From an uncultured Bacilli bacterium (GTDB lineage Bacteria; Bacillota_I; Bacilli_A; RF39; UBA660): a stretch of 64,000 bases of DNA. The notes under the pieces are model-generated. The model did no database searches, was not told where the DNA came from, and saw nothing but the letters and a program-made list of their open reading frames with translations. Location: positions 35,571-99,570 of the forward strand of contig CANQON010000003.1 in the NCBI GenBank assembly GCA_947625505.1, written 5' to 3'. Both the position numbers and the translations under genes were made by a program. Positions within the stretch are counted from its first letter, which is position 1. Every line of letters starts with the position of its first letter. Below are positions 24,900 through 42,597 of the stretch, one piece after another.

Positions 24900-27290
24900 A
24901 TGAAATTTATTAAAAAGTATGGTTGGTATATGTTGTCTTTTTTGTTACCATTAACTGTGTTAGTGGTTTTATTTGCTATTAAAGGTTTATTTACTAATTA
25001 TAGTATTACCTTATCTGATATGCGATTTCAGCAAGCACCAATGTTTAAATATTTACATGATATTTTACATGGTAGTGCGACTTTTCCTTATACATTCTCT
25101 AATGGTTTAGGGGGAACAATGTATGCTAGTCTCTTTTATTATCTAGCAAATCCTATAAATTTATTTGTTTATTTTTTTAATGATATTGATTTATTTTTAA
25201 CTATCTTAATTATTGTTAAAATGTCTTTATGTGGATTTACTATGTTTATTTTTCTAAAGAATAAGTTTAAAACAAATAATGTTTATCTTTTAATATTTAG
25301 TTTAGCCTATGCTTTAATGGGATACAATATCAATTATTACTGTAATATTATGTGGTTAGATGGTGTTATGATGGCACCTTTAGTTCTTTTAGGAATAGAA
25401 AGATTTGTTAATAAAGATAAGCATGTTTTTTATATTATTACTTTGTTTTTAGCAATTATTTTTAATTTTTATACAGGATATATGTTAACAGTCTTTTCAT
25501 GCTTATATTTCTTTTATTTACTTTATAGTAATTATGAAGGGAAACATTTTATTAAAGATAATCGAAAAAAAATATTTAAGTTTATTGGTGTAACTTTTTT
25601 AACGGGATTATTAACTGCTTTTGTTCTTATACCTATAGCTTATCAGTCTTTAAGTTTTGTACGTGTAGAAGAGGAATATAATATTTTTAATTATAGTTTC
25701 TTTGATATTATTGCGGGAAGCTATATTGGTTTTTCTGATGCTTTGTATCCTTTAAATGATTTTGGACTTATTATTTATAGTGGACTCCTTTGGTTACCTC
25801 TTGTTATCAATTATTTATTTAATAAAGAAGTTAAAAAGAGAGAAAAAATTAGTATCGTTATTATTTATTTATTACTAATATTACCTGTTATTATTCAGCC
25901 CTTAAATTATTTATGGCATATGTTTACATATCCTCAAAGATTTAGTTATAGATATAGTTTTTTAGCTGTTTTATTCTCTTTAATTATTAGTGTAAAAGCT
26001 TTTCAAAATATTAATATATCTAAAAAAGTAACAAAGCTATTTTTTATAATTTATTTAATCTTATCAAGTGCTTTAGTATATTTATGCTTTAAAACACCAG
26101 ATTATTATGTTTATTTAACACCATGGAAAATTATATTATCACTAATTGTAGTATCAGTCTATTGTTTATTACTTGTTAAAAATAAAAGAAAATTAATTAT
26201 TGGTTTATTAGCTATGGACTTAATATTTAATATAGGATGGTTTGTTTTTGATTCTAAATTTTTGGCTAAATCAAGTAATCAGCAAACTATCAGTCACTTA
26301 TCTTATTTTGAAGAGCATTGTCAAAATAGTCAAAGATGTGAATCAATATATATTATGAGCTATAATGATGGCTTCTATTTAAATACTAATCCTATAACAG
26401 TATTTAATTCTACTACTAATAAAAAAATAATTGATTTTTTATCAAAAATTAGAGCTTTAGATAATAATCGTAATTTATATGCTTATGGTACATATGACTT
26501 AATAAGTGATATGTTATTAGGTGTAGAATATATTGGAGAAACAAGAGATATAAAAGAGTATACTGTAGTAGATGAAAAAGTCATTGACGATTTACCTGTT
26601 TACACTTACTATAATCCTGATGCTTTAAATATGGGCTTTATGGTATCTAGTAAAATCAAAATATTAGAAAGTGATAATAGGGGATACAAATATCTTAATG
26701 ATGTTTTAATGTCTATGAAAGATGATTCAACTTATTTAATAAAGTTAGATGTTGAAAAAATAAGTGATACTAAATATGTTATTCATAAGAATGAACAGTA
26801 TCCATACATTTATATTGAGTCTAATGAGCCTACTATAAATATTGACAATGACGATTTAAATGATAGTGATTATTATGGTATTTATTTTGATAAAGATTCT
26901 AAAGACGTAGAATTAGTATTTAAAGAAAAACCGAAAAAGTTAGAAGTATATACAGTTAATGTTGATAAACTAAAGAAATTTAAAGAAACAACTACTGAGC
27001 TTGAAATAGAAGTTAATGATGGTAATTATATTAGAGGTATTGTCAAAAATAAGGAAGCTGGGACTTTATTCACAAGCATTATAAATGAAAAAGGATGGAC
27101 TGTTTATGTTGATGGCTATAAAGTTAATCACTTTGAGTTATTAGATTCATTTATAGGTGTTGATGTAGATAAAGGTATCCATATTATAGAATTTAAATAT
27201 AAAACACCTTATTTAGATTTAGGCTTAGGTGTTAGCTTAACAAGTTTAATTATTTTAATTGCTTATGAAATGAAAAGAAGAAAGGATTAA
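24900..27290 (+). CDS. YfhO-family polytopic membrane glycosyltransferase-like protein
   Basis: ~800 aa. The N-terminal pattern FLLPLTVL...SDMRFQQAPMFKYLHD...FSNGLGGTMYASLFYYLANPINL matches what I recall of YfhO proteins. Many TM segments and a C-terminal extracellular domain followed by a final TM. Confidence 0.65.
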   Translation: MKFIKKYGWYMLSFLLPLTVLVVLFAIKGLFTNYSITLSDMRFQQAPMFKYLHDILHGSATFPYTFSNGLGGTMYASLFYYLANPINLFVYFFNDIDLFLTILIIVKMSLCGFTMFIFLKNKFKTNNVYLLIFSLAYALMGYNINYYCNIMWLDGVMMAPLVLLGIERFVNKDKHVFYIITLFLAIIFNFYTGYMLTVFSCLYFFYLLYSNYEGKHFIKDNRKKIFKFIGVTFLTGLLTAFVLIPIAYQSLSFVRVEEEYNIFNYSFFDIIAGSYIGFSDALYPLNDFGLIIYSGLLWLPLVINYLFNKEVKKREKISIVIIYLLLILPVIIQPLNYLWHMFTYPQRFSYRYSFLAVLFSLIISVKAFQNINISKKVTKLFFIIYLILSSALVYLCFKTPDYYVYLTPWKIILSLIVVSVYCLLLVKNKRKLIIGLLAMDLIFNIGWFVFDSKFLAKSSNQQTISHLSYFEEHCQNSQRCESIYIMSYNDGFYLNTNPITVFNSTTNKKIIDFLSKIRALDNNRNLYAYGTYDLISDMLLGVEYIGETRDIKEYTVVDEKVIDDLPVYTYYNPDALNMGFMVSSKIKILESDNRGYKYLNDVLMSMKDDSTYLIKLDVEKISDTKYVIHKNEQYPYIYIESNEPTINIDNDDLNDSDYYGIYFDKDSKDVELVFKEKPKKLEVYTVNVDKLKKFKETTTELEIEVNDGNYIRGIVKNKEAGTLFTSIINEKGWTVYVDGYKVNHFELLDSFIGVDVDKGIHIIEFKYKTPYLDLGLGVSLTSLIILIAYEMKRRKD

Positions 27291-27841
27291 CTTTCTTCTT
27301 TATATTTTGATTCAAATAAATTAGATACTGTATCATCTTGTTCAATAGGTTTTAATTCAGGTAGATCTTTGATACTATTTAGACCAAAGTAATCTAAAAA
27401 GTCATTAGTAACACCATATAATTTAGGTTTACCTGCTAATTCTGCTCTTCCTACTTCTTGAATAAGGTTTTTTAATAGTAATTTTCTAATGACATACGTA
27501 CTATTGACACCCCTTATTTCATCTACTTCTAATCTAGTTATAGGTTCATTATAGGCAATAATTGCTAATGTTTCTATAGCGGATTGACTTAAATTACTAT
27601 TTTCTTCTTCAAATGTTAATTGTTCATAAAGAGCTTTATGTTTTTCTTTAGTCGTTAGTTTATATCTATTACCTAGGAGTTCTAATTGGATGCCACGTTC
27701 ATCACTTTGATAGTCATCATATAATTCACGAATAGCTTTTTTTACTTCTTGATCGTTACTTTTAGTTAGTTCAATTATCTCTTCGAGGGATAATCCATCA
27801 CTACCTTTAACGAAGAGAAGTCCTTCAATCATGGCTTTCAT
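27287..27841 (-). CDS. scpB: Segregation and condensation protein B
   Basis: IEGLLFVKGSDGLSLEEI ... IETLAIIAYNEPITRLEVDEIRGVNS. Immediately downstream of scpA with a 1-nt overlap. Confidence 0.88.
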   Translation of the reverse strand: MKAMIEGLLFVKGSDGLSLEEIIELTKSNDQEVKKAIRELYDDYQSDERGIQLELLGNRYKLTTKEKHKALYEQLTFEEENSNLSQSAIETLAIIAYNEPITRLEVDEIRGVNSTYVIRKLLLKNLIQEVGRAELAGKPKLYGVTNDFLDYFGLNSIKDLPELKPIEQDDTVSNLFESKYKEES

Positions 27842-28551
27842 TATTCTCCTCCTTTAGCTTCAATAATAATGTTTTCAAAGTTATTATCTTGTTTAATTAA
27901 TATTTCTTGTCTTTTGGACATACTTAAGATAGCTAGAAAAGTTATGACAATATATTCTTTAGTTACTTCATCAAATAATTCAGTAAAGTTAACACGTTTT
28001 TTATTTCTTAAAATGTCACGTATTTCAACACTTCTTTTACCAATAGAATATTCTTTATTAGTTACTTTGGTTGTTAAAGGTTTATGGGCTTCTTTGTCTT
28101 GCAGAAATTTATTTAAAGATGCTACTAAGTCATCTAAAGTAACTCCATAGTCGACATTTTCTATTACTGTTTTATATTCTTCTAATGTTGGTTCACGTGT
28201 ATAAACTTCTTTACGTAGTGCTTCATATTCTCTTAGCTTTTCAGTTGACTCTTTATAAGCTTGATAATCTAATAGTCTTGTTATTAATTCTTCTCTAGGA
28301 TCTATAGTTTCTTCATTATCTTCATGAGGCAATAGTGTTCTTGATTTTAATTCAATTAAATCAGATGCCATTACTAAGTATTCGCTAGCGATATTTAAAT
28401 TTAATTCTTCCATTTTATTAATATAGTCTAAATATTGTTTAGTAATATCATCTATACTAATATCCATAATATCAATATCAGCTTTTTTAATTAAATGTAA
28501 TAATAAATCTAATGGTCCTTCAAAAGAAGGTAAAACAACACTATATTCCAT
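27841..28551 (-). CDS. scpA: Segregation and condensation protein A
   Basis: FEGPLDLLLHLIKKADIDIMDISIDDITKQYLDYI is the ScpA N-terminal signature. Start is taken at MEYSVV. Confidence 0.88.
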   Translation of the reverse strand: MEYSVVLPSFEGPLDLLLHLIKKADIDIMDISIDDITKQYLDYINKMEELNLNIASEYLVMASDLIELKSRTLLPHEDNEETIDPREELITRLLDYQAYKESTEKLREYEALRKEVYTREPTLEEYKTVIENVDYGVTLDDLVASLNKFLQDKEAHKPLTTKVTNKEYSIGKRSVEIRDILRNKKRVNFTELFDEVTKEYIVITFLAILSMSKRQEILIKQDNNFENIIIEAKGGE

Positions 28552-28701
28552 GAAAACACACTCCAAATGATATAATAATTATAAACTTTTTTAAATAATA
28601 ATTCAATATAAGGGATTTTAAGATTATGATGAAAAAAACTTTTAATTTATTTTCTTTTAAGGTATACTATATTTAGAGTTAAAAATAGGAAGGGGATTCA
28701 T

Positions 28702-30303
28702 ATGGTATTAAGAAAGCCTTATGCATTTTTAATTAAACATTTTAAAATGATACACCTTTTTTTAACAGGCGCTATCTTATACTTAATAGTTAGAATGTCA
28801 CATGTTATTGGCTTTGTTAATGAATATCTAGATGCTAACATAAAGTTAATAACTTTAAGCCAATTTAGGACTGTTTATAATATTTTTGATTTTATTATAC
28901 CCGTATTAATATTAGGATTTTCTATAATATTGTTTTTGATTATGACAGTTAAAAAGAAACCTAATAGATTTTATTTATATTCAACTATTATAAGTGTTCT
29001 TTTATTAATTTTAAATATTTATGGATATATAACTTTAAGAAGCTTAACAGAAGTATGGTTACAAGCTAATCGTTTAAGCGTTATGAATGATATGTATCTA
29101 TTTATGATGATATCTTTTGTTGGTCTATGTGGTATGTCATTATCACGTGGATTAGGTTTTAACATTGGAAGATTTGATTTTAATAATGATATAGCTGATA
29201 TAGATGTATCAGAAGAAGATAATGCAGAATTTGAAGTATCAATTGATTTTGATATTAATGACGTTAAAAGAGATGCTAAAAAACAAATTAGATACATGAA
29301 GTATTTCTATAAAGAAAATAAAACTGCTATTTTAACTGTTGTAGGTGTTTTTGCTTGTTTTATTTTAATTTATAGTTTGGGAACATTCTTACGTTATCGA
29401 AAAGATGTTACTAAGGGAAATCTTTTAAGTGCTAATGGCTTTGATATAACAGTAAATAATTCTTATATCATTGATACTGATGCCCAAGGGAATGATTTAG
29501 CTGATAATACCCATTTATTAGTTGTTGATGTAGACGTTAAGAATGTAGGTTACTTAGAGGGTGAAACGTTAAATACAGGACTTATTTCTTTAGATATTGG
29601 TTCAAATACATATCATACGACAAGAGAATATGATACGAGTGCTGTAGATTTAGGAAAAGTATATAACGATGAATTAGTAAAATATGATACATCTATGCGT
29701 CGTTTATTGATTTTTAAAGTTCCAACTAATAGATTATTTAGTCGTATTTTATTTGGTATAAGAGATAATGGTGGAAATACAGTTTATCTTAAACTTAATC
29801 CTAAAGATTTAAGTGATAAGAAAAATAAAATAGTAGAAGTATTCCTTGGCGATGAATTAAAATTAGAAGAAAGTGCCATTGATAATGTTAATATTAAAAT
29901 TAATAAAGTAGAAACTGGAGATCGTTTTAAATTAAATTATAATTATTGTATAAATAAGACAAGATGTGTTAATTCAATTGAATATTTAACTCCGATTTCA
30001 GCTCTTTCTAATTATGATAAAACACTTCTTAAATTAGAAGGAACATTTGAAGTTAAAGATAATTTGTTATTTAAAGATTTCTTTAGTTTATTTGAATCTT
30101 TTGGATACATTGAGTATAAAATAAATGGTAAAACATATCGACAAACATCTGGCTTTAAAGAAGCAAAAAGTACAAAGATTAAGAACCTTAAAGCTATTTA
30201 TATTGAAACTTATAAAGATTTAGCTAGTGCAGATGATATATGTTTAGGTTTAAAAATAAGAAATACAGAGTATCGATATTATTTATCAGGGGGTGCGAAT
30301 TAA
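28702..30303 (+). CDS. Membrane protein: 4-5 N-terminal TMs, cytoplasmic acidic linker, TM, large extracytoplasmic beta-rich domain
   Basis: RBS GGAAGGGG. Hydrophobic segments are visible by eye. The extracellular part (LLVVDVDVKNVGYLEGE...) is reminiscent of DUF4352-type domains. First gene of the same-strand block. Confidence 0.5.
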   Translation: MVLRKPYAFLIKHFKMIHLFLTGAILYLIVRMSHVIGFVNEYLDANIKLITLSQFRTVYNIFDFIIPVLILGFSIILFLIMTVKKKPNRFYLYSTIISVLLLILNIYGYITLRSLTEVWLQANRLSVMNDMYLFMMISFVGLCGMSLSRGLGFNIGRFDFNNDIADIDVSEEDNAEFEVSIDFDINDVKRDAKKQIRYMKYFYKENKTAILTVVGVFACFILIYSLGTFLRYRKDVTKGNLLSANGFDITVNNSYIIDTDAQGNDLADNTHLLVVDVDVKNVGYLEGETLNTGLISLDIGSNTYHTTREYDTSAVDLGKVYNDELVKYDTSMRRLLIFKVPTNRLFSRILFGIRDNGGNTVYLKLNPKDLSDKKNKIVEVFLGDELKLEESAIDNVNIKINKVETGDRFKLNYNYCINKTRCVNSIEYLTPISALSNYDKTLLKLEGTFEVKDNLLFKDFFSLFESFGYIEYKINGKTYRQTSGFKEAKSTKIKNLKAIYIETYKDLASADDICLGLKIRNTEYRYYLSGGAN

Positions 30304-30304
30304 T

Positions 30305-30973
30305 ATGAAAAAGATAATATTCATTATGATATGTTTATTTACTTTCCCAATGATAAGTAAAGCTATTGATGTTGATTACTGTACGAAAGATGAAGCTTCA
30401 GAAGTAAGAGCTCTTGCTTCCAATGTAAGTATTAATTATGATGTAGTCTTAAAAGATGATAAACCTATATATACTATTTATATAACTAACCTAACTGATG
30501 ATATGTTAGTTATTGATAGAATGACATCTGTAACAAAGAAAGGATTTAGTAAGACAGGTAGTGAGTATAGTTTCACAACAGAACAAGGAGGTTCTTATTA
30601 TATAGACATATACTCATATAAATGTAAATCAAAATTAATAAGTAAGGTTTTAGCTTTACCTGTATACAATGCTTATTATAAAGATCCTTTATGTGAAGGA
30701 TTAGATGCTTATAAGCAATGTCAACGTTGGAGTGGATATACAGCTACTCGTGAAAAATTTGAAAGTGATATCAAAAAGATAAAAGATGATATCAAGCAAA
30801 AAGAAGAATATCAGAAGAAACTTGAAAAAAAAGAATTATCTTGGTATGAAAAGATAGTAAGATTATTTATTAAGTTCTGGTGGGTAATCGTTTTAGTTAT
30901 AGCTTTAGTATCATTTGTTGTTTATATTATTAGAAAACAACGAAAGAAAAAAGAATATGATTTCAAATTATAA
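30305..30973 (+). CDS. Secreted/C-terminally anchored protein with 4 Cys ectodomain
   Basis: Signal peptide MKKIIFIMICLFTFPMISKA, coiled-coil KK/E stretch, and C-terminal TM WWVIVLVIALVSFVVYII followed by RKQRKKK. It is coupled to the upstream gene (TAATATG). Confidence 0.5.
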   Translation: MKKIIFIMICLFTFPMISKAIDVDYCTKDEASEVRALASNVSINYDVVLKDDKPIYTIYITNLTDDMLVIDRMTSVTKKGFSKTGSEYSFTTEQGGSYYIDIYSYKCKSKLISKVLALPVYNAYYKDPLCEGLDAYKQCQRWSGYTATREKFESDIKKIKDDIKQKEEYQKKLEKKELSWYEKIVRLFIKFWWVIVLVIALVSFVVYIIRKQRKKKEYDFKL

Positions 30974-30996
30974 GCAAGAATTATTCTTGCTTTTTA
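30972..30996 (+). terminator. Intrinsic terminator
   Basis: AAGCAAGAAT-TATTCTTGCTT followed by TTTAATTTTT. Confidence 0.65.
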
Positions 30997-31076
30997 ATTT
31001 TTATCTAGTAATAATTTATAAAATGTGATATTCTTATTATAGTTAAAATAGTAAAAAAGTCGGTTGGAGGTAATTT

Positions 31077-34000
31077 ATGAAAAAAAGAGTAGTTAATATA
31101 GTGTTGAGCATTGCTATAGCTCTTTCATCTTTAGCTATTGTCTTGTCATTAAAACAAAGTGTATCAGCTGTATCAGTTGGCGGAGACTGGTCTAAGTTGC
31201 CAGGTGGTTCTGGTGGAGGTAGCTGTGGATCAGGAAACTGCTATAACTTAAACTCATCTGGTGTCCGTATTTCCTTGGTGGATGACAATGGTAATCGAAT
31301 TGCAGGAACTAAATCAGTTGATTATTGGTTTGATACTAATGATAGATATCCAAATAAAAATGTTAGTGGATTTGCCCAATATTGTTCAAGTGCTAAATAT
31401 AATAAAAAAGAAGCAATGTCATTAACTAGTACTAGCGGATTTAGTAATTGCAGTCCAAGTTTTAACAATATAAGTAATTTATTAAATGTTAATATTTCTA
31501 ATCCTCGAAGCACAGGTGAGGTTGATACTGTAATGAACGAAATATTACAACTTGGAAAATCAACTAAAGGTGAACGTGGACATGCTAATTGGGCAGTGTA
31601 TGATAAAATATTTGCTCAGACAGGCTATAAAGTAAATGGCCAACAAGTTACGATTTTAAATATCAATGCAGAAGAAGCTAAAAAAATATATATTGAGTTT
31701 GAACCATTAGTTTCTTTTATCAATAGTGGTTCTGCTACTACTGATTCTGTACTTTATGGAACAATATCTGAAGCTGCTGCAATTGGTAATTTGGGTGGAA
31801 TTAATTATGGACTTAATGGACCAATTGTTAACTATATGTTTCAAACGGTTAAATGGGATGGAATATCTTCAACTTCTAGTAAACCATCAGCATATCAACC
31901 TATTAGTAATGTTGCAGGAAGCTTAACAAACTTTTTTGGGGTAAGTAGTAGTGGAAAATATTATGGTTATTCTGTTGGATTTATATATTTAGGAGATTTA
32001 ACAATTGGCTCTAGCTGTGATGAAACTATTCAAAAGGCTTTAAAATCTTATACTGAAGGTAAATCTTCAGCGAGTGATTATGCAAAAGTGGTTAAATCAT
32101 TAAGAAATACTGATTCAACTTGTAAAGCGAATCAAAAAAATTGTGATCATTTAGATTTGGAAGATGTTGCTTTCTATGGATTTACATATGACACTCTTAC
32201 ATGTGAACCTATTGATTGTGGTGATGAAGTATCTGCTATTATAAAAAATTGTTATGGTAGTACGTGTTCTAATAATTCAGGCTCTTATAAGGGTATGACT
32301 TATGAAGAAGCTATTGATTATGCTTTTAAAAATACAAGCGTTGTAAAATCTGTATGTGGAGCAGATGGTTCAAAATGTAATCGTTTATTTAAAGAAAATA
32401 TTGAATTATATGGAATTCCATCATCATCTAATGCTTGTTCTTTATTAAGTTGTGATCAACAAGCTCAAGATGCAACAAATAAATATCGTGGTAATGTTTC
32501 TAAATTAAAACAATATTTAAATTGGTTATATACAAATCAACAAACTGTATATGGTAAAACATTCCCATTGCTTGATTATGCATTATGGCATGACGAATTA
32601 GGTTTATCAGAGCCTAAATGTGGAGAGTTGCCACAATGTGAGCCAACATTAGTAGGGGATAATTGTACGACAGGTAGTGTATCTTTTAAAGATTCAACAA
32701 AAACAAACTGTTGGTATGATGAAGGTGTAGGATATAACATAAAAGGAGGAGCTCGTGGTTCTTCTAAAGACTTGACACTAAGTGGTAATGCTTGTAATGT
32801 AATGTGTCAAGAAACTGTTACATTTAATTTTCCTACAGCAACTGACCCAACAATAGTAAAAGCAGGAAAAACTTTCGTTTGGGGAACATTGAATAACAAT
32901 AGAACTTCAGTTACTTTTGGTACAATGAATTTAACAAAGGTATGTAAAGCACAAACAACAGAAATGATAGATGGTAACTTAATTACATATGATCAAAATG
33001 AAACGCAAATGAAATCTAATTATGCTAAATGGCAAGCTGCTTTAAGCGTAGTTAACTCAAATATTACAGCATCACCTAATGCAAATAAATGTGGTACATG
33101 GAAATTCAATGGTACAGATAAAGCTAAGTATTATGCATCAAAAGGTGGATATTCAGCATGCAATGCTATAAAAAGTAAAGCTATTGATAGTGTAAGAACA
33201 CAAGCTCGTGAAGCTGCTAATTCATATGAAGCTCGATACAATACCAACGTTAGCATTCAAACTAAATATGCTAATGGTGGAGGAGTATGTAAAACTAATA
33301 AAATAAATGATACATGGGCTAATTCAGATCATGTTAAGACAACTATTAAATTAAATTATAGTGAGCCTACAACTCCAAGTAATTATAATACAAATAATAT
33401 AACTTTAGATCGTATTCAAGATTCTAATTCTTATTCAGCTGTTACTAATTTAAGAAATGGTACTAAATTAGATGCTAGTAATAATGCAGGATGTACATCA
33501 ACTTTAAAAGATAAGATAGTATGTCAAAATGGTTCTTGTAAGGTAAGTGGAAAAATTAGAGTTTATGATTGTAGTAATGTAAATAATTGGACATTAAGTC
33601 AAACTTATAGGTTTAATTATCCAGATGAATTATATTGGTATTCAGATAAAACAGATTCATCATTATTAACTCAAACAGATGTAGATCATGATACTAATGG
33701 TAATCGTAATAAACCTTATTATTATGAAATAGGTTATGGTTTACCAACATCATTTACAACTCCTAGAGGAACTTATAATGGTATGGAAGTACAAATATCT
33801 TTAGTTGGATCTTATCAAAATAATAAAGGACATTTTGATGATTTAATTAAACGAGGATATGCAGGATTATATGGCCAAAATTTAAGTTATTTTACATATT
33901 CATGTCCATTTAAAATAAATAATGAATTATTTGCTACAGAATGTGAATATGACGCTAATGGTAATTTAATAGCAGGTTCTCCTGAATATTGCGATCCAAA

Positions 34001-34517
34001 AGATGATCCAACACCAGAGGGAATGCCTACAGGAATCGATGTTGTATTTAGAACTATTGATTTAATTAACGCCAAAGGAACAATCAAGGATGAAATAGAA
34101 AGAGCTTTCCCTGGTAGAGCAGGTGTTGTTGATAGTACATCAAGACGTATTGGTTCTAACTGGGATAAGTTAGATGAAGCAACAATTGTTTCTGTACTAG
34201 ATGATACAGTATATAGTAAAAAAGATCCTCAATATCATATAGAGTTAACAACATCTATTATTCAAAGAATAAGAGGATATAATAAAACAGCTAGAAATAG
34301 TCATTTAGACCCATATTCAGCAATGGAAATAATCTATAATGACAATGATACAGGTACAGGATATACAGGATATATATGCATTGAAGAAAATGGTAAAAAG
34401 TATTGTGGAAGTACATTCTTATCTAGTTTAATATCAAATAGAGAACTTACTGGTACATGTGCTGAAACTAGTAGCACTAGAACAAGAACACTTAACCATT
34501 TAAGAACAGGTTGTTAA
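31077..34517 (+). CDS. Giant secreted cysteine-rich protein, paralog 1 (1146 aa)
   Basis: Signal peptide (MKKRVVNIVLSIAIALSSLAIVLSLKQSVSA) followed by a Gly-rich stretch. About 36 Cys by hand count. No LPXTG motif and no C-terminal TM. It shares blocks with 34605..37877: GTKSVDYW, CQETVTF.(F/L)PT, YYYEIGYGLPT.FTTP, GIDVVFRTIDLIN, RAFPGR, LDDTVYSK..PQYHIELT. Confidence 0.8.
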   Translation: MKKRVVNIVLSIAIALSSLAIVLSLKQSVSAVSVGGDWSKLPGGSGGGSCGSGNCYNLNSSGVRISLVDDNGNRIAGTKSVDYWFDTNDRYPNKNVSGFAQYCSSAKYNKKEAMSLTSTSGFSNCSPSFNNISNLLNVNISNPRSTGEVDTVMNEILQLGKSTKGERGHANWAVYDKIFAQTGYKVNGQQVTILNINAEEAKKIYIEFEPLVSFINSGSATTDSVLYGTISEAAAIGNLGGINYGLNGPIVNYMFQTVKWDGISSTSSKPSAYQPISNVAGSLTNFFGVSSSGKYYGYSVGFIYLGDLTIGSSCDETIQKALKSYTEGKSSASDYAKVVKSLRNTDSTCKANQKNCDHLDLEDVAFYGFTYDTLTCEPIDCGDEVSAIIKNCYGSTCSNNSGSYKGMTYEEAIDYAFKNTSVVKSVCGADGSKCNRLFKENIELYGIPSSSNACSLLSCDQQAQDATNKYRGNVSKLKQYLNWLYTNQQTVYGKTFPLLDYALWHDELGLSEPKCGELPQCEPTLVGDNCTTGSVSFKDSTKTNCWYDEGVGYNIKGGARGSSKDLTLSGNACNVMCQETVTFNFPTATDPTIVKAGKTFVWGTLNNNRTSVTFGTMNLTKVCKAQTTEMIDGNLITYDQNETQMKSNYAKWQAALSVVNSNITASPNANKCGTWKFNGTDKAKYYASKGGYSACNAIKSKAIDSVRTQAREAANSYEARYNTNVSIQTKYANGGGVCKTNKINDTWANSDHVKTTIKLNYSEPTTPSNYNTNNITLDRIQDSNSYSAVTNLRNGTKLDASNNAGCTSTLKDKIVCQNGSCKVSGKIRVYDCSNVNNWTLSQTYRFNYPDELYWYSDKTDSSLLTQTDVDHDTNGNRNKPYYYEIGYGLPTSFTTPRGTYNGMEVQISLVGSYQNNKGHFDDLIKRGYAGLYGQNLSYFTYSCPFKINNELFATECEYDANGNLIAGSPEYCDPKDDPTPEGMPTGIDVVFRTIDLINAKGTIKDEIERAFPGRAGVVDSTSRRIGSNWDKLDEATIVSVLDDTVYSKKDPQYHIELTTSIIQRIRGYNKTARNSHLDPYSAMEIIYNDNDTGTGYTGYICIEENGKKYCGSTFLSSLISNRELTGTCAETSSTRTRTLNHLRTGC

Positions 34518-34546
34518 AAAGTAGTACGAGTTACTACTTTTTTTCT
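34517..34546 (+). terminator. Intrinsic terminator after paralog 1
   Basis: AAAAGTAGTA-CGAGT-TACTACTTTT followed by TTTCTT. Confidence 0.75.
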
Positions 34547-34574
34547 TGATACAATATTAAATTTATTGTATAAT
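34546..34574 (+). promoter_or_regulatory. Promoter TTGATA-17-TATAAT for paralog 2
   Basis: -35 at 34546..34551, exact 17-nt spacer, consensus -10 at 34569..34574, 30 nt before the ATG. Confidence 0.6.
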
Positions 34575-34604
34575 TGTTATGTATAAAATAGTGAGCGTGA
34601 TTAT

Positions 34605-37600
34605 ATGAAGAGATTTTTTAATAGAGTAAAACCATTCTTTTATTGCCTTTTTATATGCGTTTTCTTATCAGTATTTGTAATTTCTGATAATGTTTATGGC
34701 GATTCTAATGCTGGATCCATTCAACCAGGTAGTGGTGGAGGTGGAGGAGGTTCCGGCGGTGGGCATGATAGAAATATCATTGCTTTTGGGTACCGAATTT
34801 CACTTGTATATAATAGTACTAAAGATGGTCATACAGCAGGAACAAGGGTTTCAGGTACCAAATCTGTAGATTATTGGATGATTTCCCACTATAATTTTGA
34901 AGGAAATGGACAGGAATATGGCTTTGGTGCTTTAATTAATAATAATAATAACTGGACTTGGAATGACAAAGGAGAAGCTCATTTTTGTTATCCTTCTAAT
35001 GCTCCAGGTGTTACTAATCGAAAATTTACTAAGCAAGAAGTCTCTGCAGGTAAGACTGGAACAATATCATGCAGTTCTTTTTTAAGTAATGACAATGATA
35101 ATAATAGGATAGATACGTTAACGGGCGTAACGACCAATTTTGCAAGAAGTAAATATGGTGGCGATGATGGATATGAAAGAACTGGTAACTATATAGCTCA
35201 AATTGCTTCTACAAATTTAAAAACAATTTTTGATAAAGATCAAAGTCAATATTCGAGCTATGAATATAATACAATTAATACGTTTTTAGTTAACTGTGGT
35301 TTTAATAAAAACCCAGATGCAAAAACAAATATAAATGAAGCTGTTCGCCAAGATGTTACTCTTCAACTTGAACCAGTTTCAGCCATTCGTGATGGTTCTG
35401 GGCAACAAACTGATGATAGAAATCATAATTGGACCAATGTCTATGTAGGAACGTCTGCAGAACAATCACTTAGTGGAATGATGGCAGACGATGATAATTG
35501 GGCTTATAATAAAGTTACATATTTGCATCCAATTATTTTTGCTCAAAGAAATAATAAAGACAAGGCAAATAATATTTACACTAAAGCTGGTATAGCAATT
35601 TCTGATAGTTTTTCTAATGATAATGTTACTCGCGCTAACTCAAAATCTGCTAGTAGCCCTTTAGCTGTTGCATTATATTATTTAGGAGATTATTTTGGAT
35701 CAAATAATTGTGATGCTGATTTAGTTAGTGCGTTAAAAGCTAATAATAGTACTTCATATAATAGCTTGGTTAACAACTATAAAGCCTCATATCCTGCTTT
35801 AAGCAAGCTTTCATTTAATGATTTTAAAATGATATATTCTGGAAAATATGATAGTGCGTCTTGTTCTCCTTCTTGTGAAGATGAGGCAAATGCGATTTAT
35901 AAAAATTGTTATGGTAAAAGTTGCTCATATATGGGAAAAACGAACTATTCATCTGCTGTGTCAGCCAGTGTTAATAATTTGTCAAAATATGATGCTACAA
36001 ACGAAAACAATGTAAAACTTTATTTGGCAACAAATAGTTCGCCAACGAGTGATGGATTCTTTTGCGTAGATTATGGATGCGACAAAATGGTTGAAGATGC
36101 ATCTATAACATGGAGTGCAAGTATAGGATATCCTAACTCCGTATATGAAAAATATATTACCTGGTTACTTAGCTATCTCCCTACAAAATATCCTGGAACT
36201 AATACCACTTTAATAGCAACCAGCAATTGGCAAGATATAGGACTATCCGGGCCACAGTGTGATTCTTTACCACCTTCACCGCCACCTCCTACTCCAAATG
36301 CTAATTGTACGGGATCGGTTACTTTTTCAGACACAAGTGATTTAGACATAATAAAACAAAATGTAGCATATGAAACTGTTAATGGCAAAAAAGCTGCTAG
36401 TGCATTAATGAATGTTGGAAATACAACTTGTAAATATGTTTGCCAAGAAACGGTTACTTTCACTCTTCCAACTAGACCAAGCACCATAAAAGCTGGAAAA
36501 GTATTTAAATGGGGTAGCAGTACAAATATTAATAGTGAAGAATTTGGAATAATGAATGTAACTGAAAAATGCTATATTAAGCCTACAGTGAAAAAAGAAG
36601 TGGGCACTAGAAGGGTAAAAAATAAAAAAACAGGAAAATGGGAAGATGAAACTTATACAAAGGGATATACTATAAATTGTGCTGGTACACATACATTGCA
36701 TAATAGTGATTTTGAAGACAAATTTACTGGAACAAAAGTTAAATTATATTTTAATGAACCATCTGATAGTTCATTAAAGGTAAATGGTGTTGAATTAAAG
36801 GTTGTTAAAGACACAGTGTCCACAACAGGAAGTGTATCTTGTTCAACAGCACTTTTTAGTAGTAAAGATAGTGCAAAGAATGGATGCTCTAACTCTATAA
36901 CATTTACTGGAAAATATTTACTTAATTATGATGACAAATTGAAATGGGAATCTAGTAAAATTGACAGCTCTTTAATAACAAAGAATAATGTCGATGTTTC
37001 TAAATCAAGTTGGTATTATGAAATAGGATATGGTCTACCTACTGCATTCACCACACCAAACTTTACTGTTGAAGATAGTAACCCTAATTATTTATATGCC
37101 AATATTAGTAATATTGGTAGAACTCAAAATTCAAATCATCATTTTGATAAATTAGTTTCTAGTATTACAGGTTCTTCCACCCTTAAATATTATTGTGGAT
37201 TTGAGATAAAAAACGAGTTGTTTGGTGATGATTGTGAATATGATTCTAATGGTAATTTAAAACCAGGTTCTCCTGATTACTGTGATTTAAAAGAAGATGA
37301 TCAAATAAATCCTGGTTTAGATAAGGAACCAGTAAGAGGTATAGATGTTGTTTTCCGAACTATTGATTTAATAAATAAAAAAGATAATATTGCTTCTCAA
37401 ATTGATAGAGCATTCCCTGGTAGATTGGGAAAAATTGATAATAATGGAAGACAAAAAGGACATAACTGGTCTAATCTAGATATCGATCCTGCTGTTAATG
37501 ATACTAAAATAGCTGATATACTTGATGATACAGTATATTCTAAGGCAAAGCCACAATATCACATTGAATTAACAGTAGCTAAAATATATGATATACGTAA

Positions 37601-37877
37601 AATGAATAGAGAAGCTAAAAGTGCTACACCAAAACTTGATCCTTTTTCAGAAATGACTATTTATAATTATAGTGATGATTCACATATGTCTCCTGGTAAT
37701 ACTGGATACTATTGTGCAGAAGGAACAGATGTAAATGGTGAAAAGCATAAATATTGTGCAAGTCATTTTGTATCAATTTTAAAAGAAAAATATGGCTTAA
37801 CAGGTTCATGTATAGATGGACACCCATATACACAATCTAGAGCTGTATATTATAAGAATAATGGATGCACATCATAA
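34605..37877 (+). CDS. Giant secreted cysteine-rich protein, paralog 2 (1090 aa)
   Basis: Signal peptide followed by a GSGGGGGGSGGG stretch. About 25 Cys in the mature part. Same conserved blocks as paralog 1, plus a PPSPPPPTP linker. Confidence 0.8.
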   Translation: MKRFFNRVKPFFYCLFICVFLSVFVISDNVYGDSNAGSIQPGSGGGGGGSGGGHDRNIIAFGYRISLVYNSTKDGHTAGTRVSGTKSVDYWMISHYNFEGNGQEYGFGALINNNNNWTWNDKGEAHFCYPSNAPGVTNRKFTKQEVSAGKTGTISCSSFLSNDNDNNRIDTLTGVTTNFARSKYGGDDGYERTGNYIAQIASTNLKTIFDKDQSQYSSYEYNTINTFLVNCGFNKNPDAKTNINEAVRQDVTLQLEPVSAIRDGSGQQTDDRNHNWTNVYVGTSAEQSLSGMMADDDNWAYNKVTYLHPIIFAQRNNKDKANNIYTKAGIAISDSFSNDNVTRANSKSASSPLAVALYYLGDYFGSNNCDADLVSALKANNSTSYNSLVNNYKASYPALSKLSFNDFKMIYSGKYDSASCSPSCEDEANAIYKNCYGKSCSYMGKTNYSSAVSASVNNLSKYDATNENNVKLYLATNSSPTSDGFFCVDYGCDKMVEDASITWSASIGYPNSVYEKYITWLLSYLPTKYPGTNTTLIATSNWQDIGLSGPQCDSLPPSPPPPTPNANCTGSVTFSDTSDLDIIKQNVAYETVNGKKAASALMNVGNTTCKYVCQETVTFTLPTRPSTIKAGKVFKWGSSTNINSEEFGIMNVTEKCYIKPTVKKEVGTRRVKNKKTGKWEDETYTKGYTINCAGTHTLHNSDFEDKFTGTKVKLYFNEPSDSSLKVNGVELKVVKDTVSTTGSVSCSTALFSSKDSAKNGCSNSITFTGKYLLNYDDKLKWESSKIDSSLITKNNVDVSKSSWYYEIGYGLPTAFTTPNFTVEDSNPNYLYANISNIGRTQNSNHHFDKLVSSITGSSTLKYYCGFEIKNELFGDDCEYDSNGNLKPGSPDYCDLKEDDQINPGLDKEPVRGIDVVFRTIDLINKKDNIASQIDRAFPGRLGKIDNNGRQKGHNWSNLDIDPAVNDTKIADILDDTVYSKAKPQYHIELTVAKIYDIRKMNREAKSATPKLDPFSEMTIYNYSDDSHMSPGNTGYYCAEGTDVNGEKHKYCASHFVSILKEKYGLTGSCIDGHPYTQSRAVYYKNNGCTS

Positions 37878-37906
37878 AAGGTAGTATTTGAATACTACCT
37901 TTTTTA
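37878..37906 (+). terminator. Intrinsic terminator after paralog 2
   Basis: AAGGTAGTATT-TG-AATACTACCTT followed by TTTTAT. Confidence 0.75.
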
Positions 37907-38086
37907 TGAATTTTATGGAAAATAATTCCTCAAATACTAGTATAAAAAAATTTTTTATGTTATACTAACTATAGTATTTATGATAGTAGAGTATAACTAT
38001 GCTCTAATATAGTTCATAATACTTGTTTGGCCAAAAAAGTATTGTAACTTTAGTTTTAACTAGGTACATCGACAGGAGGTGACTAG

Positions 38087-38500
38087 ATGAAAGAATCTTT
38101 TTGGGCAGTAATGATTGTAACATTGGGAATTATGTCAATATTTTTGGTTTATTACTTTCAAACAGTCACAAATACTAGTGAACATAACTATGAGCTTTTG
38201 AAAGAGACAACCGAAGCTGCAATGTTTGACGCTTTAGATTTAGCTGCTTATCGTAATGATGAAACAATCCGTATAGATCAAGAAAAATTTGTTGCAAGTT
38301 TCATTAGAAGATTTGCACAAGATGCTACTTTAGCTCATGCATATGATATTAGCATATATGATGTACATGAAGAACCCCCTAAGGTAAGTATTAAAATAGA
38401 TACATTTAATAACTTAGCTAGATTTGCTTGGGGTAGTGAAGAAACAAAATTCTTATTGTCTAATAGAATTGATGCAATACTAGAAACAAAATATGATTAG
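38087..38500 (+). CDS. TadE-like / minor-pilin-like protein (N-terminal MKES + TM)
   Basis: The N-terminus MKESFWAVMIVTLGIMSIFLVYYF shares the M[KR]ES[IF]-then-TM pattern with 43063.. and 43583... RBS AGGAGGTG. Confidence 0.4.
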   Translation: MKESFWAVMIVTLGIMSIFLVYYFQTVTNTSEHNYELLKETTEAAMFDALDLAAYRNDETIRIDQEKFVASFIRRFAQDATLAHAYDISIYDVHEEPPKVSIKIDTFNNLARFAWGSEETKFLLSNRIDAILETKYD

Positions 38501-38529
38501 TAAAAAATGTTTAGAGAGGGGAATATTAT

Positions 38530-39405
38530 ATGAATAATTTAGCAATTTCATTAAAAAAGTTTTTTACGAATAAAAATACTGTAACAATTATTGGTGTTGT
38601 TGCAATCTTAGTTATTTTGTATTTCTTATATACAAGTACTGTAAATAATGCAACAGAAAAAGTTCAAGTTCCTGTTGCAGCCAATACAATTAACCCACAA
38701 ACTCAAATTACAGCAGAAGACGTTACATATGTTGAAGTAGCTAATGCTGCTAAACCAGATGACGTAATTATGAATGATAGTGAGATTATTGGTAAATATA
38801 CTGGTGTTGGTATGACTGTTCCACAAGGTAGTATGTTTTATGCAGGTGTTGTTGTTGAAAAAGAAGATTTACCTGGTAGTTGGTTAAAATTACTAGAGAA
38901 AGATGCTTTAGGTAATTTACAAAAACCTTATTACTTCCCAGTTAATGTAACAACAACATTTGGTAACTCAATTCAACCTGGTGATTATGTTGACTTCTAC
39001 GTAAAAACATATAATGAACAAGATGTATTAATGTTTGGTAGAATGATTGAAAACGTAAAAGTTTTAGCAGTAACTGACTCTGATGGACAAAATGTATTTA
39101 GAAGCCAAGGAGATATTGGTGATCCTGCCTTCCTAGATATTGGTTTATCTGATGAACTTCATGATGTATTTAGAAAATCAGAAAATATAAATGAAGTTGA
39201 AATTGAATTAATTGTTGTACCACATGGTGGTGCTGTACCTGAAACTGACCTAGAAGTTAATGTGTCAAGTGAGTATTTAAGAGATTTCATTGTCGCACAT
39301 TCAGCAGAAATTCCTAAAAATGCTGAAGCAGAGGATGCAACTACACCAGAAGGTGGAGCTACAACTCCAGCTACAACAACTCCAGCAACTACTCCTGCTA
39401 ACTAA
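38530..39405 (+). CDS. CpaB/RcpC-like Flp pilus assembly protein (TM + SAF domain)
   Basis: N-terminal TM (VTIIGVVAILVILYFLY). SAF-like region VPVAANTINPQTQITAEDVTYVEV...IIGKYTGVGMTVPQGSMF. RcpC-like region GDYVDFYV...VKVLAVTD. Thr/Pro tail. Confidence 0.6.
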   Translation: MNNLAISLKKFFTNKNTVTIIGVVAILVILYFLYTSTVNNATEKVQVPVAANTINPQTQITAEDVTYVEVANAAKPDDVIMNDSEIIGKYTGVGMTVPQGSMFYAGVVVEKEDLPGSWLKLLEKDALGNLQKPYYFPVNVTTTFGNSIQPGDYVDFYVKTYNEQDVLMFGRMIENVKVLAVTDSDGQNVFRSQGDIGDPAFLDIGLSDELHDVFRKSENINEVEIELIVVPHGGAVPETDLEVNVSSEYLRDFIVAHSAEIPKNAEAEDATTPEGGATTPATTTPATTPAN

Positions 39406-39432
39406 TATAAAATAGATAAAAAGGGATAATTT

Positions 39433-40842
39433 ATGGATAATAACATATTTGAACAGATGGACTTTGGTCCACTACAACAATTTTTGGATAACGATGATGT
39501 TACCGATATTTCATATAGTAATGGTGGACAAATTTGGTTAAAAACTTTATCTCATGGTATTTTTAGAATTGAAAATCCTGATATAAACAATAGTTTCATG
39601 GAAAAGTTAGCTTTTCAATGTTCAAATGTTGTAGGTCATAGTTTCAATGCTGCTCATCCATTCCTCGATAGTGAGGATGCTGAGTTACGTATGAATTTTA
39701 TTCATGAGTCAATAGCTCGAAATGGTATAGCTTGTGTTATACGTAAAACACCTGCTAAGATACGTTTAGAGAAAGATAAAATAATTGCAGATAAGTATAT
39801 TACAGAGGATATCCATGATTTATTAATTCATTGTGTTCATGGACATTGTAATATCATTGTATGTGGAGAAACTGGTTCAGGTAAAACTGAGTTCGTTAAA
39901 TATTTAGCTTCCCATACAAGAGAAAATGAAAAATTAATAACAATAGAGGATACACTTGAACTTCACTTGGATCGTATTTATCCACATCGTGATATCGTTG
40001 CTATGAAAACTAATAACGTTGCTAGTTATTCTGACGTATTAGTTTCCTGCATGAGACAGAATCCAAAGTGGATATTACTTTCCGAGGTTCGTAGTGCTGA
40101 AGCTGTTACAGCAGCTCGTAACTCTATTTCTTCAGGACACTACATTTTGTCAACAATCCATGCTGATAAAGCATCATCTATACCTAACCGTATGTATAGT
40201 TTGATGGAAACAAGCCAAGATGTAGATCAGTTCTTGAAAACCATTTATCGATATATACAAATAGGAGTCTATATAAGAGGTTACCAAAGTAAGAAAACAC
40301 AACATTTTGTTCGTGAAATAGCTGAGGTTTGTGAATTTTATGTAGATGAAAATAATAATTGTAAAGAAAATATAATATATCGTAAAACACCTGATGGTAA
40401 GATTATTAAGCATCAACCTAGTCAACATTTAATTGATTATCTTGAAGCTCAAGGAGTATTATTACCAAAGGGATTAATTAAGGATGAAGAGATTGATACT
40501 GGCGAAGCATCAATTGATGTTGATACTGTTGATTCACCTGGTGGTATGAAAATAGAGGATTTTAATGAGGGAAAAGCTATGGACAAAGTTCCATCGAATG
40601 ATGAAAAAAGCAATGTAGTTAAACCTCCTGTGAATCCTTTGCCAACAACAAATAGTCAACCTACACCATCAATGAATGTAAGACAAATGCCTGTAGGAAA
40701 TACTAATATACCTAATAATGTTGGTTATAATCCTATGATGCAACCTAATACACAACAATATCAAGGCAATAGATTTATTAATCAATCTATGCCTAACGTA
40801 CGTGTAACACCTATGCCAGATCAAAATAACACAACTTCTTAG
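39433..40842 (+). CDS. CpaF/TadA-family secretion ATPase (VirB11 superfamily) with ~115-aa N/P/Q-rich C-terminal extension
   Basis: Walker A CGETGSGKTEF, ITIEDTLEL (Asp box), NPKWILLSEVR (Walker B region), LSTIHA (His box). Confidence 0.85.
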   Translation: MDNNIFEQMDFGPLQQFLDNDDVTDISYSNGGQIWLKTLSHGIFRIENPDINNSFMEKLAFQCSNVVGHSFNAAHPFLDSEDAELRMNFIHESIARNGIACVIRKTPAKIRLEKDKIIADKYITEDIHDLLIHCVHGHCNIIVCGETGSGKTEFVKYLASHTRENEKLITIEDTLELHLDRIYPHRDIVAMKTNNVASYSDVLVSCMRQNPKWILLSEVRSAEAVTAARNSISSGHYILSTIHADKASSIPNRMYSLMETSQDVDQFLKTIYRYIQIGVYIRGYQSKKTQHFVREIAEVCEFYVDENNNCKENIIYRKTPDGKIIKHQPSQHLIDYLEAQGVLLPKGLIKDEEIDTGEASIDVDTVDSPGGMKIEDFNEGKAMDKVPSNDEKSNVVKPPVNPLPTTNSQPTPSMNVRQMPVGNTNIPNNVGYNPMMQPNTQQYQGNRFINQSMPNVRVTPMPDQNNTTS

Positions 40843-40868
40843 TTGTTAGATATAGGAGGTGGAAATAT

Positions 40869-41774
40869 ATGTCTACTATACTTGTATTCGTAATAATAGC
40901 GGCAATTATGATATTCGTTATTATTTATCGTAATGCTAGTGGTGAAAATTTATATAAATATGTTGCTGAAAATACAACGTTCATTTATGATAAATTTGCA
41001 CCTTATACTTACAAATCTATTAGAGAAAAAGTTAAAGATTTAGGGCAAGATTATACAATTCACCAATATATAATGCAAGCTGTTGGGTTTGCCATTGGTG
41101 CAGCTGTAATATCTTACTTATATTTCTATAGTTTAATTATTTCGATAATATATGCCGTAGCAGCAGTATCTGTTATTCCTTATTTAAATTATTTACGTTG
41201 TAAAAGATTATATAGTGAATTTATTTTTGAACAAATTCAAGTCTATACATCTAATACAATAATGGAATTTGCTACTACGCAATCTTTTGTTAAATCACTT
41301 GAAGGTGTATATAATTCAGGTGTCTTAGAAGATCCTGTTAAAACAGATGTTAAAGTAATGATTGATATGGCTTATGAAAATGGTACAATTGATCAATCAT
41401 TAAGCTTTATGAGTACTAAATATGATTTCTATATGGTTAAGAATATGCATCAATTATTCTTACAAATCACTAATGAAGGTGCTAAGGATACAGCAGAATC
41501 TCTTGAAAATATGTCACAAGATATCGATAACCTTGTTGAAAATGTATATCGTGATAGACTTGATAGAGCTGCTTTCCATAAGAAGTTCTTACAATTTGGT
41601 ATAATCTTATACTTTATGTGTATGTTACTTCAATTTATGTTAGGTGCTGAAAAGTACGAAAATCTATTAGAGTTATGGTATGTAAAATTATTAATTCATA
41701 TAATTTTAATAGTTAATTCTTACTTCTTATTAAAGGGTGAGAAATATTATAATGAGAATGTAGGTGCTGAATAA
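40869..41774 (+). CDS. TadB-like (T2SS-F family) inner-membrane platform protein
   Basis: Topology is TM, TM pair, ~140-aa cytoplasmic helical domain, then 2 TM. Position is directly after the CpaF-type ATPase. Confidence 0.6.
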   Translation: MSTILVFVIIAAIMIFVIIYRNASGENLYKYVAENTTFIYDKFAPYTYKSIREKVKDLGQDYTIHQYIMQAVGFAIGAAVISYLYFYSLIISIIYAVAAVSVIPYLNYLRCKRLYSEFIFEQIQVYTSNTIMEFATTQSFVKSLEGVYNSGVLEDPVKTDVKVMIDMAYENGTIDQSLSFMSTKYDFYMVKNMHQLFLQITNEGAKDTAESLENMSQDIDNLVENVYRDRLDRAAFHKKFLQFGIILYFMCMLLQFMLGAEKYENLLELWYVKLLIHIILIVNSYFLLKGEKYYNENVGAE

Positions 41775-42559: not shown

Positions 42560-42567
42560 TAAAAAAG

Positions 42568-42597
42568 TTGAAAAATATGTAAATATTATGATATAAT
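42568..42597 (+). promoter_or_regulatory. Strong promoter TTGAAA-18-(TGa)TATAAT for the Flp-like pilin gene
   Basis: -35 at 42568..42573. Extended -10 TGATATAAT ends at 42597. RBS AAAGGTGGTGAGG and then the ATG at 42627. Confidence 0.7.

Follow-up and report, generated by a model that had tools for sequence, protein, structure and literature searches.

What do two very large, cysteine-rich proteins do when they are encoded beside a secretion locus? This question is raised by a 64,000-nucleotide (nt) stretch of contig CANQON010000003.1 from an uncultured Bacilli bacterium (assembly GCA_947625505.1), hereafter the window, which has a G+C content of ~28–32%. An earlier reading of its letters (the original prediction) described two tandem secreted paralogs, here called p1 and p2, and suggested that they are pilus-tip or adhesin proteins, or secreted substrates of the adjacent machine. 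We analyzed the two genes, their relatives and their chromosomal neighborhood. The answer we prefer, held tentatively and with slightly less than even confidence, is that p1 and p2 are Sec-exported, machine-docked and target-binding proteins that are analogous, but not homologous, to PilC/PilY1 proteins.

Properties of p1, p2 and their family

The two tandem, very large and Cys-rich paralogs were confirmed as open reading frames (ORFs) at the following positions.

31077–34517, + strand: p1 (paralog 1), ORF of 1146 amino acids (aa) with 36 Cys
33582–34514, + strand: C-terminal "constant" domain of p1 (residues 836–1146), the best conserved part of the family
34605–37877, + strand: p2 (paralog 2), ORF of 1090 aa with 27 Cys (25 after the signal peptide)

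The C-terminal parts of p1 and p2 were 40% identical over 420 aa (BLASTP, E=1e-71), and the N-terminal and middle parts were 26% identical over 647 aa (E=3e-34). These E-values indicate a paralogy far beyond chance. Alignment recovered all of the motif islands originally listed in both proteins, with boundaries as written except that two begin one residue later, as KNCYG..C (not IKNCYG) and CEYD.NGNL (not ECEYD). The predicted counts of about 36 and 25 Cys were exact for p1; for p2, the value of 25 holds only past the signal segment, which contains the remaining 2 of the 27. Both N-termini are K/R-rich and then hydrophobic (~residues 3–25, the sole hydrophobic stretch of either protein), followed by VSA (p1) or VYG (p2) and by the poly-Gly stretches, which were present as quoted. 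In p1, the signal-type segment comprises residues 1–31 and the Gly-rich linker residues ~32–53, and the C-terminal domain closes the protein with the motifs IGYGLPTxFxTP, GIDVVFRTIxLIN, AFPGRxGxGRxxGxNW, and PxYxIxL. In p2, the corresponding constant domain spans residues 763–1090. The predicted absence of a wall anchor also held, as a regular-expression and hydropathy scan of p1 and p2 found no LPXTG-type motif and no C-terminal transmembrane segment, and neither protein had a LysM, SLH, choline-binding or other domain in Pfam or NCBIfam.

A GGAGG sequence lies 7 nt upstream of the p1 ATG. Between two conspecific assemblies, 14 synonymous versus 5 non-synonymous codon differences were counted in p1, and 11 versus 3 in the C-terminus of p2. 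The p1 and p2 genes are real and under purifying selection. In regards to simple-repeat phase variation, no notable tandem repeats or homopolymer arrays were present in 30900–38100.

The family was defined with a profile of the p1 and p2 alignment without signal peptides, which was run in an exhaustive HMMER scan of 1.84 billion representative proteins. The scan gave 115 matches at E≤0.001, 91 of them at E≤1e-30. Most members are 950–1330 aa long with a signal-type start and 20–48 Cys, and ~22 Cys columns are common to at least 60% of 60 aligned members. A word-indexed protein search returned only its own cluster for the p1 query and only three fragments for the C-terminal alignment query. Nine loci were found in GTDB species-representative genomes, eight of them in rabbit and mouse gut metagenome-assembled genomes (MAGs) that carry the label "uncultured Bacilli bacterium" and one in a bin labelled Roseburia; a JGI metagenome scan added only one further locus. 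Conservation was strongest in the last ~310–340 residues. In p1 numbering, the conserved blocks were 55–90, 181–240, 451–625, 751–780, and 841–1146, and the variable blocks were 91–180, 331–450, 631–750, and 781–840.

p1 and p2 had no match in Pfam, NCBIfam or PHROGs and none in PDB as single sequences, and the family profiles searched against PDB were empty at E≤10. Eight distant family members likewise had no Pfam match. The motifs, originally described as unrecognised, thus show no homology to any characterised family in Pfam, NCBIfam, and PDB sequence and profile searches. The original prediction had named homology to an S-layer, wall-binding or glycoside hydrolase family as what would speak against it; no SLH, LysM, choline-binding, CWB2 or glycoside hydrolase domain was present in p1, p2, or the eight distant members. 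p1 and p2 represent an orphan family that is rare and uncharacterised. A plasmid origin was rejected after tblastn of p1 against PLSDB gave no match, and a phage origin after PHROGs came back empty and Foldseek against BFVD gave nothing significant.

One of the HMMER matches, the 193-aa protein P0109, has an N-terminus like that of the pyruvate:ferredoxin oxidoreductase gamma subunit and closes with the family motif IDLDNPFPGKDGNGRYPGDNW. Either P0109 is a chimera from assembly or gene calling, or it hints at a more distant branch with the FPG..G.GR..G.NW loop.

AlphaFold2 models were obtained for the C-terminal domain (predicted local distance difference test score, pLDDT, 66.8; 23-sequence alignment) and for full-length p1 (pLDDT 74.4, predicted template modelling score 0.55; 60-sequence alignment). 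The p1 model predicts a signal helix, a disordered Gly linker and a beta-rich N-terminal domain (~54–300), followed by a putative all-helical domain (314–507) and a putative beta domain (524–627). A low-confidence helical insert at 631–745, missing from most relatives, precedes the C-terminal region (756–1146), which is modelled as mixed alpha/beta.

Linkage to DUF5411 and replacement of N-terminal cassettes

The link of p1 and p2 to the adjacent machine, part of the original prediction, was supported across loci. We pooled the DUF5411 loci reached via the big protein and via DUF5411 itself (four loci by the latter route). The gene directly upstream of DUF5411 was a family member in all 14 of the distinct loci with DUF5411, CpaB-like, and ATPase genes. 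Even the most distant members (P0100, P0103, and P0104) show this adjacency. The stop-to-start gap between the family gene and DUF5411 is often only 3–7 nt, which implies co-transcription.

The chromosomal site is also shared. The recurring gene order is yfhO, scpB, scpA, TM533 (a 533-aa membrane protein), g226 (a 226-aa protein), the big gene or genes, DUF5411, CpaB-like, and ATPase onward (L006, L009, L010, L013–15, and L021). In the species with this order, ScpA and YfhO are 64–81% and 41–45% identical to the window proteins, respectively. Because the scpAB/yfhO site is the same despite this divergence, the block can be regarded as a chromosomal fixture, and it looks vertically inherited rather than recently acquired. 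A reading of the block as an integrative and conjugative element or other mobile element was rejected for now on the basis of this fixed site and of the lack of any relaxase or integrase Pfam match among the ORFs of at least 100 aa in 28.7–64 kb of the window.

TM533 is syntenic upstream of the big gene in L005, L006, L009, L010, L011, L013–15, L021, and L022, and g226 travels along with it. In most loci the two genes accompany the family. In a second species (L022/L025), two big paralogs flank the corresponding genes TM532 and g227. The DUF5411 gene is identical in the sister strains L023 and L024, which carry a single big gene and lack TM533 (TM532) and g227. Genes of the TM533 and g226 type appear to be dispensable or to have been lost by recombination between big-gene paralogs. 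L002, L020, L021, and L026 likewise have big genes in tandem pairs; the commoner arrangement is a single copy beside the machine.

Some family members are located elsewhere, next to corA (L003 and L004), near lepA (L007 and L020), next to a GH25 gene (L018), and also in L005 and L017. The original prediction had proposed wide distribution in genomes lacking the machinery as a test against it. Copies away from the machine do exist, and both kinds are present in at least one MAG (L004 and L006). The off-site paralogs, sometimes in tandem, occupy other conserved chromosomal sites; they might be adhesins in their own right or supply cassettes for exchange.

The off-site copies bear on the explanation that p1 and p2 are free-standing variable surface or coat proteins, either general adhesins or antigens for immune or phage evasion, whose adjacency to the machine reflects shared regulation or history only. 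Such proteins might well have paralogs at unlinked sites and separate transcription signals, like the hairpins and promoter-like site in the window, and the cassette variation described below is typical of antigenic variation too. However, a family member stands upstream of DUF5411 in every one of the 14 loci over deep divergence, often at the short spacing given above. In addition, no wall or membrane anchor is present to hold such a protein, and the strongly conserved C-terminal module suggests a conserved partner. We regard a free-standing surface protein as unlikely.

The big proteins evolve much faster than the machine. Across species, identity to the window proteins was 70–95% for the proteins in the TadB/TadC position, 75–80% for the ATPase, 64–82% for DUF5411, and 70–88% for the 326-aa protein in the TadZ position, versus 27–48% for the big proteins. 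Within the species, the window and L021 are 98.8% identical over 24707–34759 and 99.4% identical over 37186–47876. The two segments of p2 that differ in this comparison are as follows.

34760–37185, + strand: strain-variable cassette of p2 (residues ~52–860), 2.4 kb that could not be aligned to L021
37186–37874, + strand: constant C-terminal segment of p2, ~100% protein identity between the two strains

p2 and its counterpart P0003 are 10–60% identical up to residue ~877 and ~100% identical from residue ~878. The two paralogs of L022 are 100% identical over the C-terminal ~720 aa and 18–54% identical over the N-terminal ~550 aa. Selection at the level of point changes is purifying, and the variation comes from recombination instead. 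These results indicate that the C-terminal module is kept constant, even homogenised by gene conversion, and that the N-terminal part is exchanged as a cassette.

The same data bear on whether the family belongs to the machine structurally, perhaps as a conduit through the wall or as a cap replacing the secretin/RcpA of diderm Tad systems. A family member is always present beside the machine genes, and the C-terminal domain and ~22 Cys columns are conserved, as expected for such a part. The identity of 27–48% is nevertheless far from the 70–95% of true machine parts, and a copy number of one or two together with strain-level N-terminal replacement would be unexpected for a core component. The chance that the proteins are structural parts appears slim.

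The direction of the variation is informative in regards to another explanation, that p1 and p2 are secreted effectors or toxins (antibacterial or host-directed) that are exported by Sec and released through the wall by the Tad-like apparatus acting as a piston like that of a type II secretion system. They are large, secreted, anchorless, and encoded beside an ATPase of the type IV filament type, and they diversify rapidly. A variable N-terminus with a constant C-terminus is, however, the reverse of the arrangement in polymorphic toxins. No toxin or enzyme domain was found in p1, p2, or the eight distant members with Pfam, NCBIfam, and PDB profiles, and among the invariant residues there is neither a His nor a Glu, nor any obvious catalytic triad. 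Moreover, no small immunity-like gene comes next, the following gene always being DUF5411. An effector or toxin role is therefore very unlikely.

The adjacent machine and the proposed role of p1 and p2

The genes around p1 and p2 in the window are listed below; all are on the same strand as p1 and p2.

28702–30303, + strand: TM533, 533-aa polytopic membrane protein, first gene of the block and divergent from scpA
30293–30973, + strand: g226, 226 aa, with an N-terminal signal-like segment and a C-terminal transmembrane segment
38087–38500, + strand: DUF5411 protein, 137 aa, with an N-terminal hydrophobic helix (PF17424, E=7.5e-49)
38530–39405, + strand: CpaB/RcpC-like protein with SAF and RcpC domains (Pfam/NCBIfam)
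39433–40842, + strand: TadA/VirB11-type secretion ATPase (PF00437 T2SSE, 94.9 bits, above the Pfam cut-off)
40869–41774 and 41774–42559, + strand: two polytopic membrane proteins in the TadB/TadC position (assigned by position and polytopic nature)
42627–42911, + strand: 94-aa Cys-rich pilin-like protein (conserved synteny)
43063–43569 and 43583–44044, + strand: two pseudopilin-like proteins of 168 and 153 aa (conserved synteny)
44061–45041, + strand: 326-aa conserved protein in the TadZ position (putative identity only; no Pfam match)
45060–62521, + strand: genes of a Gram-positive-type type IV secretion system (T4SS), including several PF18895 T4SS_pilin-like, TrbL/VirB6-like, VirB4-like, CHAP hydrolase, SpoIID+C39, and VirD4 proteins

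p1 and p2 do not head the block, contrary to the original prediction, since two co-conserved genes, TM533 and g226, come before them. TM533 belongs to no Pfam or NCBIfam family, and a hairpin lies directly after g226 (30972–30992). The genes upstream of the block run in the opposite direction and comprise scpA/scpB, followed by yfhO and ordinary housekeeping genes. The ATPase scored 111.9, 94.3, and 92.6 bits against the NCBIfam VirB11, TadA-family, and TrbB models, respectively, all below the cut-offs, and the CpaB model TIGR03177 gave 42.5 bits (cut-off 71) on the CpaB/RcpC-like protein. Neither protein in the TadB/TadC position matched T2SSF in Pfam (E≤0.1) or NCBIfam. The 94-aa protein and the two pseudopilin-like proteins had no Pfam match, and the former also lacks a Flp motif (G/XXXXEY). 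The DUF5411 protein is pilin-like by its architecture. Components of an MPF-FATA-type T4SS are present (TraG P-loop/AAA_10; T4SS-DNA_transf, E=1.5e-57; CHAP), and the TrbL_4 match is weak (24.4 bits, cut-off 27).

Several side observations were made on these genes. The N-termini of the four pilin-like proteins (starting at 38087, 42627, 43063, and 43583) run from M-K/R-E-S/A directly into the hydrophobic helix, and no recognisable prepilin leader or G-1 cleavage motif was found in them; judged by these N-termini, they may be leaderless or unconventionally processed pilins. The 94-aa protein has 7 Cys, including two CC pairs, within an extracellular part of ~60 residues. The T4SS_pilin-like proteins in turn have CxxC ends, and the extracellular apparatus as a whole is therefore unusually Cys-rich for an anaerobic gut firmicute. 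Six genes in 45060–50688 end in a common ~70-aa module with two transmembrane segments (QKEDEIKKGQQ...C..CF), which is visible at the DNA level as five diverged 211-nt copies (repeat family D1). The N-terminal extensions of these genes range from none to ~330 aa and contain Cys, and three of the six have weak PF18895 T4SS_pilin matches. A T4SS after the Tad-like genes is also found in the downstream parts of L006, L008–L010, and L022–L025. The scpAB/yfhO site that the combined block shares across several species, with no relaxase or integrase detectable in the window, suggests that the T4SS is vertically inherited and possibly repurposed as described for Patescibacteria. Positions 2–3655 of the window hold a cluster of defence-type genes, which encode a C-5 cytosine DNA methylase, a restriction endonuclease of the AspBHI-like/Mrr type, and an AIPR (abortive infection) protein truncated at the start of the window. 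The only tRNA of the window, tRNA-Leu(CAA), is encoded on the − strand at 24755–24841, a short way upstream of yfhO; no evidence from repeats or an integrase ties it to the block.

The transcription signals around p1 and p2 were as follows.

34517–34546, + strand: terminator-like hairpin and T-run after p1 (RNA folding, −10.2 kcal/mol, z −2.5)
34546–34574, + strand: promoter-like TTGATA-17-TATAAT upstream of p2 (consensus match only, 11/12)
37876–37905, + strand: terminator-like hairpin and T-run after p2 (RNA folding, −15.4 kcal/mol, z −5.7)

Both predicted terminators fold and have T-runs, but neither hairpin was called by a consensus terminator scanner. The predicted p2 promoter is present and is the top promoter-like match of the region, but such matches are at shuffle background in this AT-rich DNA (108 found, 106 expected). 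The original prediction made each gene its own transcription unit. The hairpins and promoter-like site agree with this in the window, but in most relatives the gene ends 3–7 nt before the DUF5411 gene, so the arrangement is at most a feature of this species.

Of the two roles originally suggested, the adhesin or pilus-associated one is favored indirectly by the fast evolution beside a conserved machine, the N-terminal cassette replacement, and the constant C-terminal module. The role as a substrate of the adjacent machine is disfavored and weakened by the classical Sec-type signal peptides; the proteins have no pilin-type leader and are not cytoplasmic T4SS substrates.

In the mechanism that we propose for target-binding, machine-docked proteins, we infer the export route, the disulfide bonding, the docking partner, and the adhesive or target-recognition role. 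The signal peptide would direct p1 and p2 to Sec export, with cleavage likely after VSA (p1) and VYG (p2). A Gly-rich linker would then lead into a chain of domains in proteins that are probably disulfide-rich, multi-domain, and extracellular. The constant C-terminal ~230–720 residues would dock the protein to the conserved machine; the likeliest docking partners would be DUF5411 and the two pseudopilin-like proteins, all of them pilin-like and encoded directly downstream. Target binding would fall to the fast-evolving N-terminal and middle part, and the target may be another cell or a host surface. Homologous recombination between alleles and paralogs would swap N-terminal cassettes and so change the specificity. 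p1 and p2 would accordingly serve as the exchangeable target-recognition component of the adjacent Tad-like pilus/T4SS apparatus.

Several observations weigh against this role. About 7 of the 17 informative family loci are not beside the machine, and the hairpins and the p2 promoter-like site mean that p1 and p2 may be expressed independently. The Tad identity of the neighbors is incomplete: T2SSF is not matched, the CpaB score is below its cut-off, and no prepilin peptidase (A24) was present among the scanned window ORFs. Many disulfides would be unusual for an anaerobic gut firmicute, and the window yielded no disulfide oxidoreductase. Neither in sequence nor in fold do p1 and p2 resemble any adhesin or pilus protein. 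Foldseek searches of both models against PDB and BFVD gave nothing significant, with best E-values of 0.2–1.3 and template modelling scores (TM-scores) below 0.15; the top matches had E=0.49 (PDB) and E=0.22 (BFVD), with TM-scores below 0.1. The F17G/GafD lectin fold appeared among the weak matches at E 0.5–0.75 and a TM-score below 0.15, and was taken as noise.

A wider picture can be drawn, although we consider it clearly unlikely. In these uncultured low-GC gut Bacilli, a fixed-site, vertically inherited, and relaxase-less T4SS would be fused to a Tad-like filament system, with cassette-switching, disulfide-rich proteins of new folds as interchangeable target-recognition heads. This would be an undescribed apparatus for cell-to-cell contact (epibiotic, predatory, or for DNA or protein exchange) or for host attachment, with a role comparable to that of the repurposed T4SS and type IV pili of Saccharibacteria.

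If the preferred reading is true, the family is the specificity determinant of a pilus/T4SS apparatus in uncultured gut Bacilli (rabbit and mouse MAGs and other metagenomes), an apparatus that is more conserved than housekeeping genes in these organisms. It would then help to find out what these organisms attach to or with what they exchange material, and it would illustrate how adhesins diversify in nature when paralogs recombine. Having no sequence or fold match, the ~310-aa C-terminal domain and several further modules may be new folds that merit structure determination. With uncultured organisms and a function that is only proposed, the practical value is limited.

Comparison with known systems

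PilC/PilY1, MshQ, and CpaL are large proteins that are encoded beside minor pilins and dock at the filament tip via the C-terminus, and MshQ and CpaL/TadG are proposed or shown to be tip-complex subunits (PMC13533445). Like PilC/PilY1 (Neisseria PilC1/PilC2 and Pseudomonas PilY1), p1 and p2 are non-pilin proteins of ~1000–1200 aa with a Sec signal peptide, encoded beside minor-pilin genes, where the pilin nature of DUF5411 is taken from architecture only. A conserved C-terminal module, a variable N-terminal part, and the possible presence of two paralogs are also common to both. In PilC/PilY1, the last C-terminal beta-strand fills out the sheet of a PilK-type minor pilin. Unlike PilC/PilY1, which has a C-terminal beta-propeller, p1 and p2 are modelled with a mixed alpha/beta fold, and no match to the Neisseria_PilC/PilY1 beta-propeller was found in Pfam (E≤0.1) or with Foldseek against PDB (none at E<0.4). 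The host of p1 and p2 is furthermore a monoderm, the gene set is Tad-like and not type IVa, and the proteins are Cys-rich. If the proposed role is true, p1 and p2 would be a monoderm, Tad-associated counterpart to tip proteins of the PilC/PilY1 type without detectable homology.

MshQ of the Vibrio MSHA pilus and CpaL/TadG of Tad pili resemble p1 and p2 as large accessory proteins next to minor pilins. No homology of p1 and p2 to MshQ was detected. CpaL/TadG has a pilin-like N-terminus, whereas p1 and p2 have a classical signal peptide followed by poly-Gly and no TadE, Tad, or vWA match in Pfam.

PilV, a minor pilin of the thin pilus of plasmid R64 (IncI1), has a C-terminus that is exchanged through site-specific inversion (the shufflon). 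The likeness is that a type IV pilus works with a T4SS and that a pilus adhesin is varied by DNA rearrangement, which changes target specificity. Unlike R64 PilV, p1 and p2 are not pilins, and it is their N-terminal part that varies, apparently via homologous recombination or gene conversion between alleles and paralogs; neither a recombinase nor inverted repeats were seen. PrgB/aggregation substance and other LPXTG adhesins of Gram-positive conjugative T4SSs are large surface proteins that are encoded with a monoderm-type T4SS and make donor-target contact. p1 and p2 differ from them in having no LPXTG motif, no antigen I/II or glucan-binding domain, and no homology to them, and the T4SS of this locus is located at a fixed site on the chromosome, with no relaxase in the window. 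In polymorphic toxins, a conserved N-terminal delivery region precedes a variable C-terminal toxin and a downstream immunity gene; the polarity of p1 and p2 is reversed, and DUF5411 is downstream.

In gene content, the locus resembles the predicted secretion/pilus operon of Roseburia, Ruminococcus, and Eubacterium (Clostridia), which contains DUF5411, a CpaF-type ATPase, and a large, internalin-like putative cell-interaction protein (Miller et al. 2022, PMC9523054). p1 and p2, from an uncultured Bacilli bacterium, have no leucine-rich repeat or internalin match. In being chromosomal and having no detectable relaxase, the T4SS is reminiscent of the repurposed MPF-FATA-type T4SS described in Patescibacteria (PMC12102498, which also mentions R64), whereas the host here is labelled Bacilli. 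p1 and p2 are not members of PilC/PilY1, of the TadG/CpaL type, of the LPXTG adhesins, or of the polymorphic toxins. We propose that they are machine-associated variable recognition proteins built from unrecognised domains.

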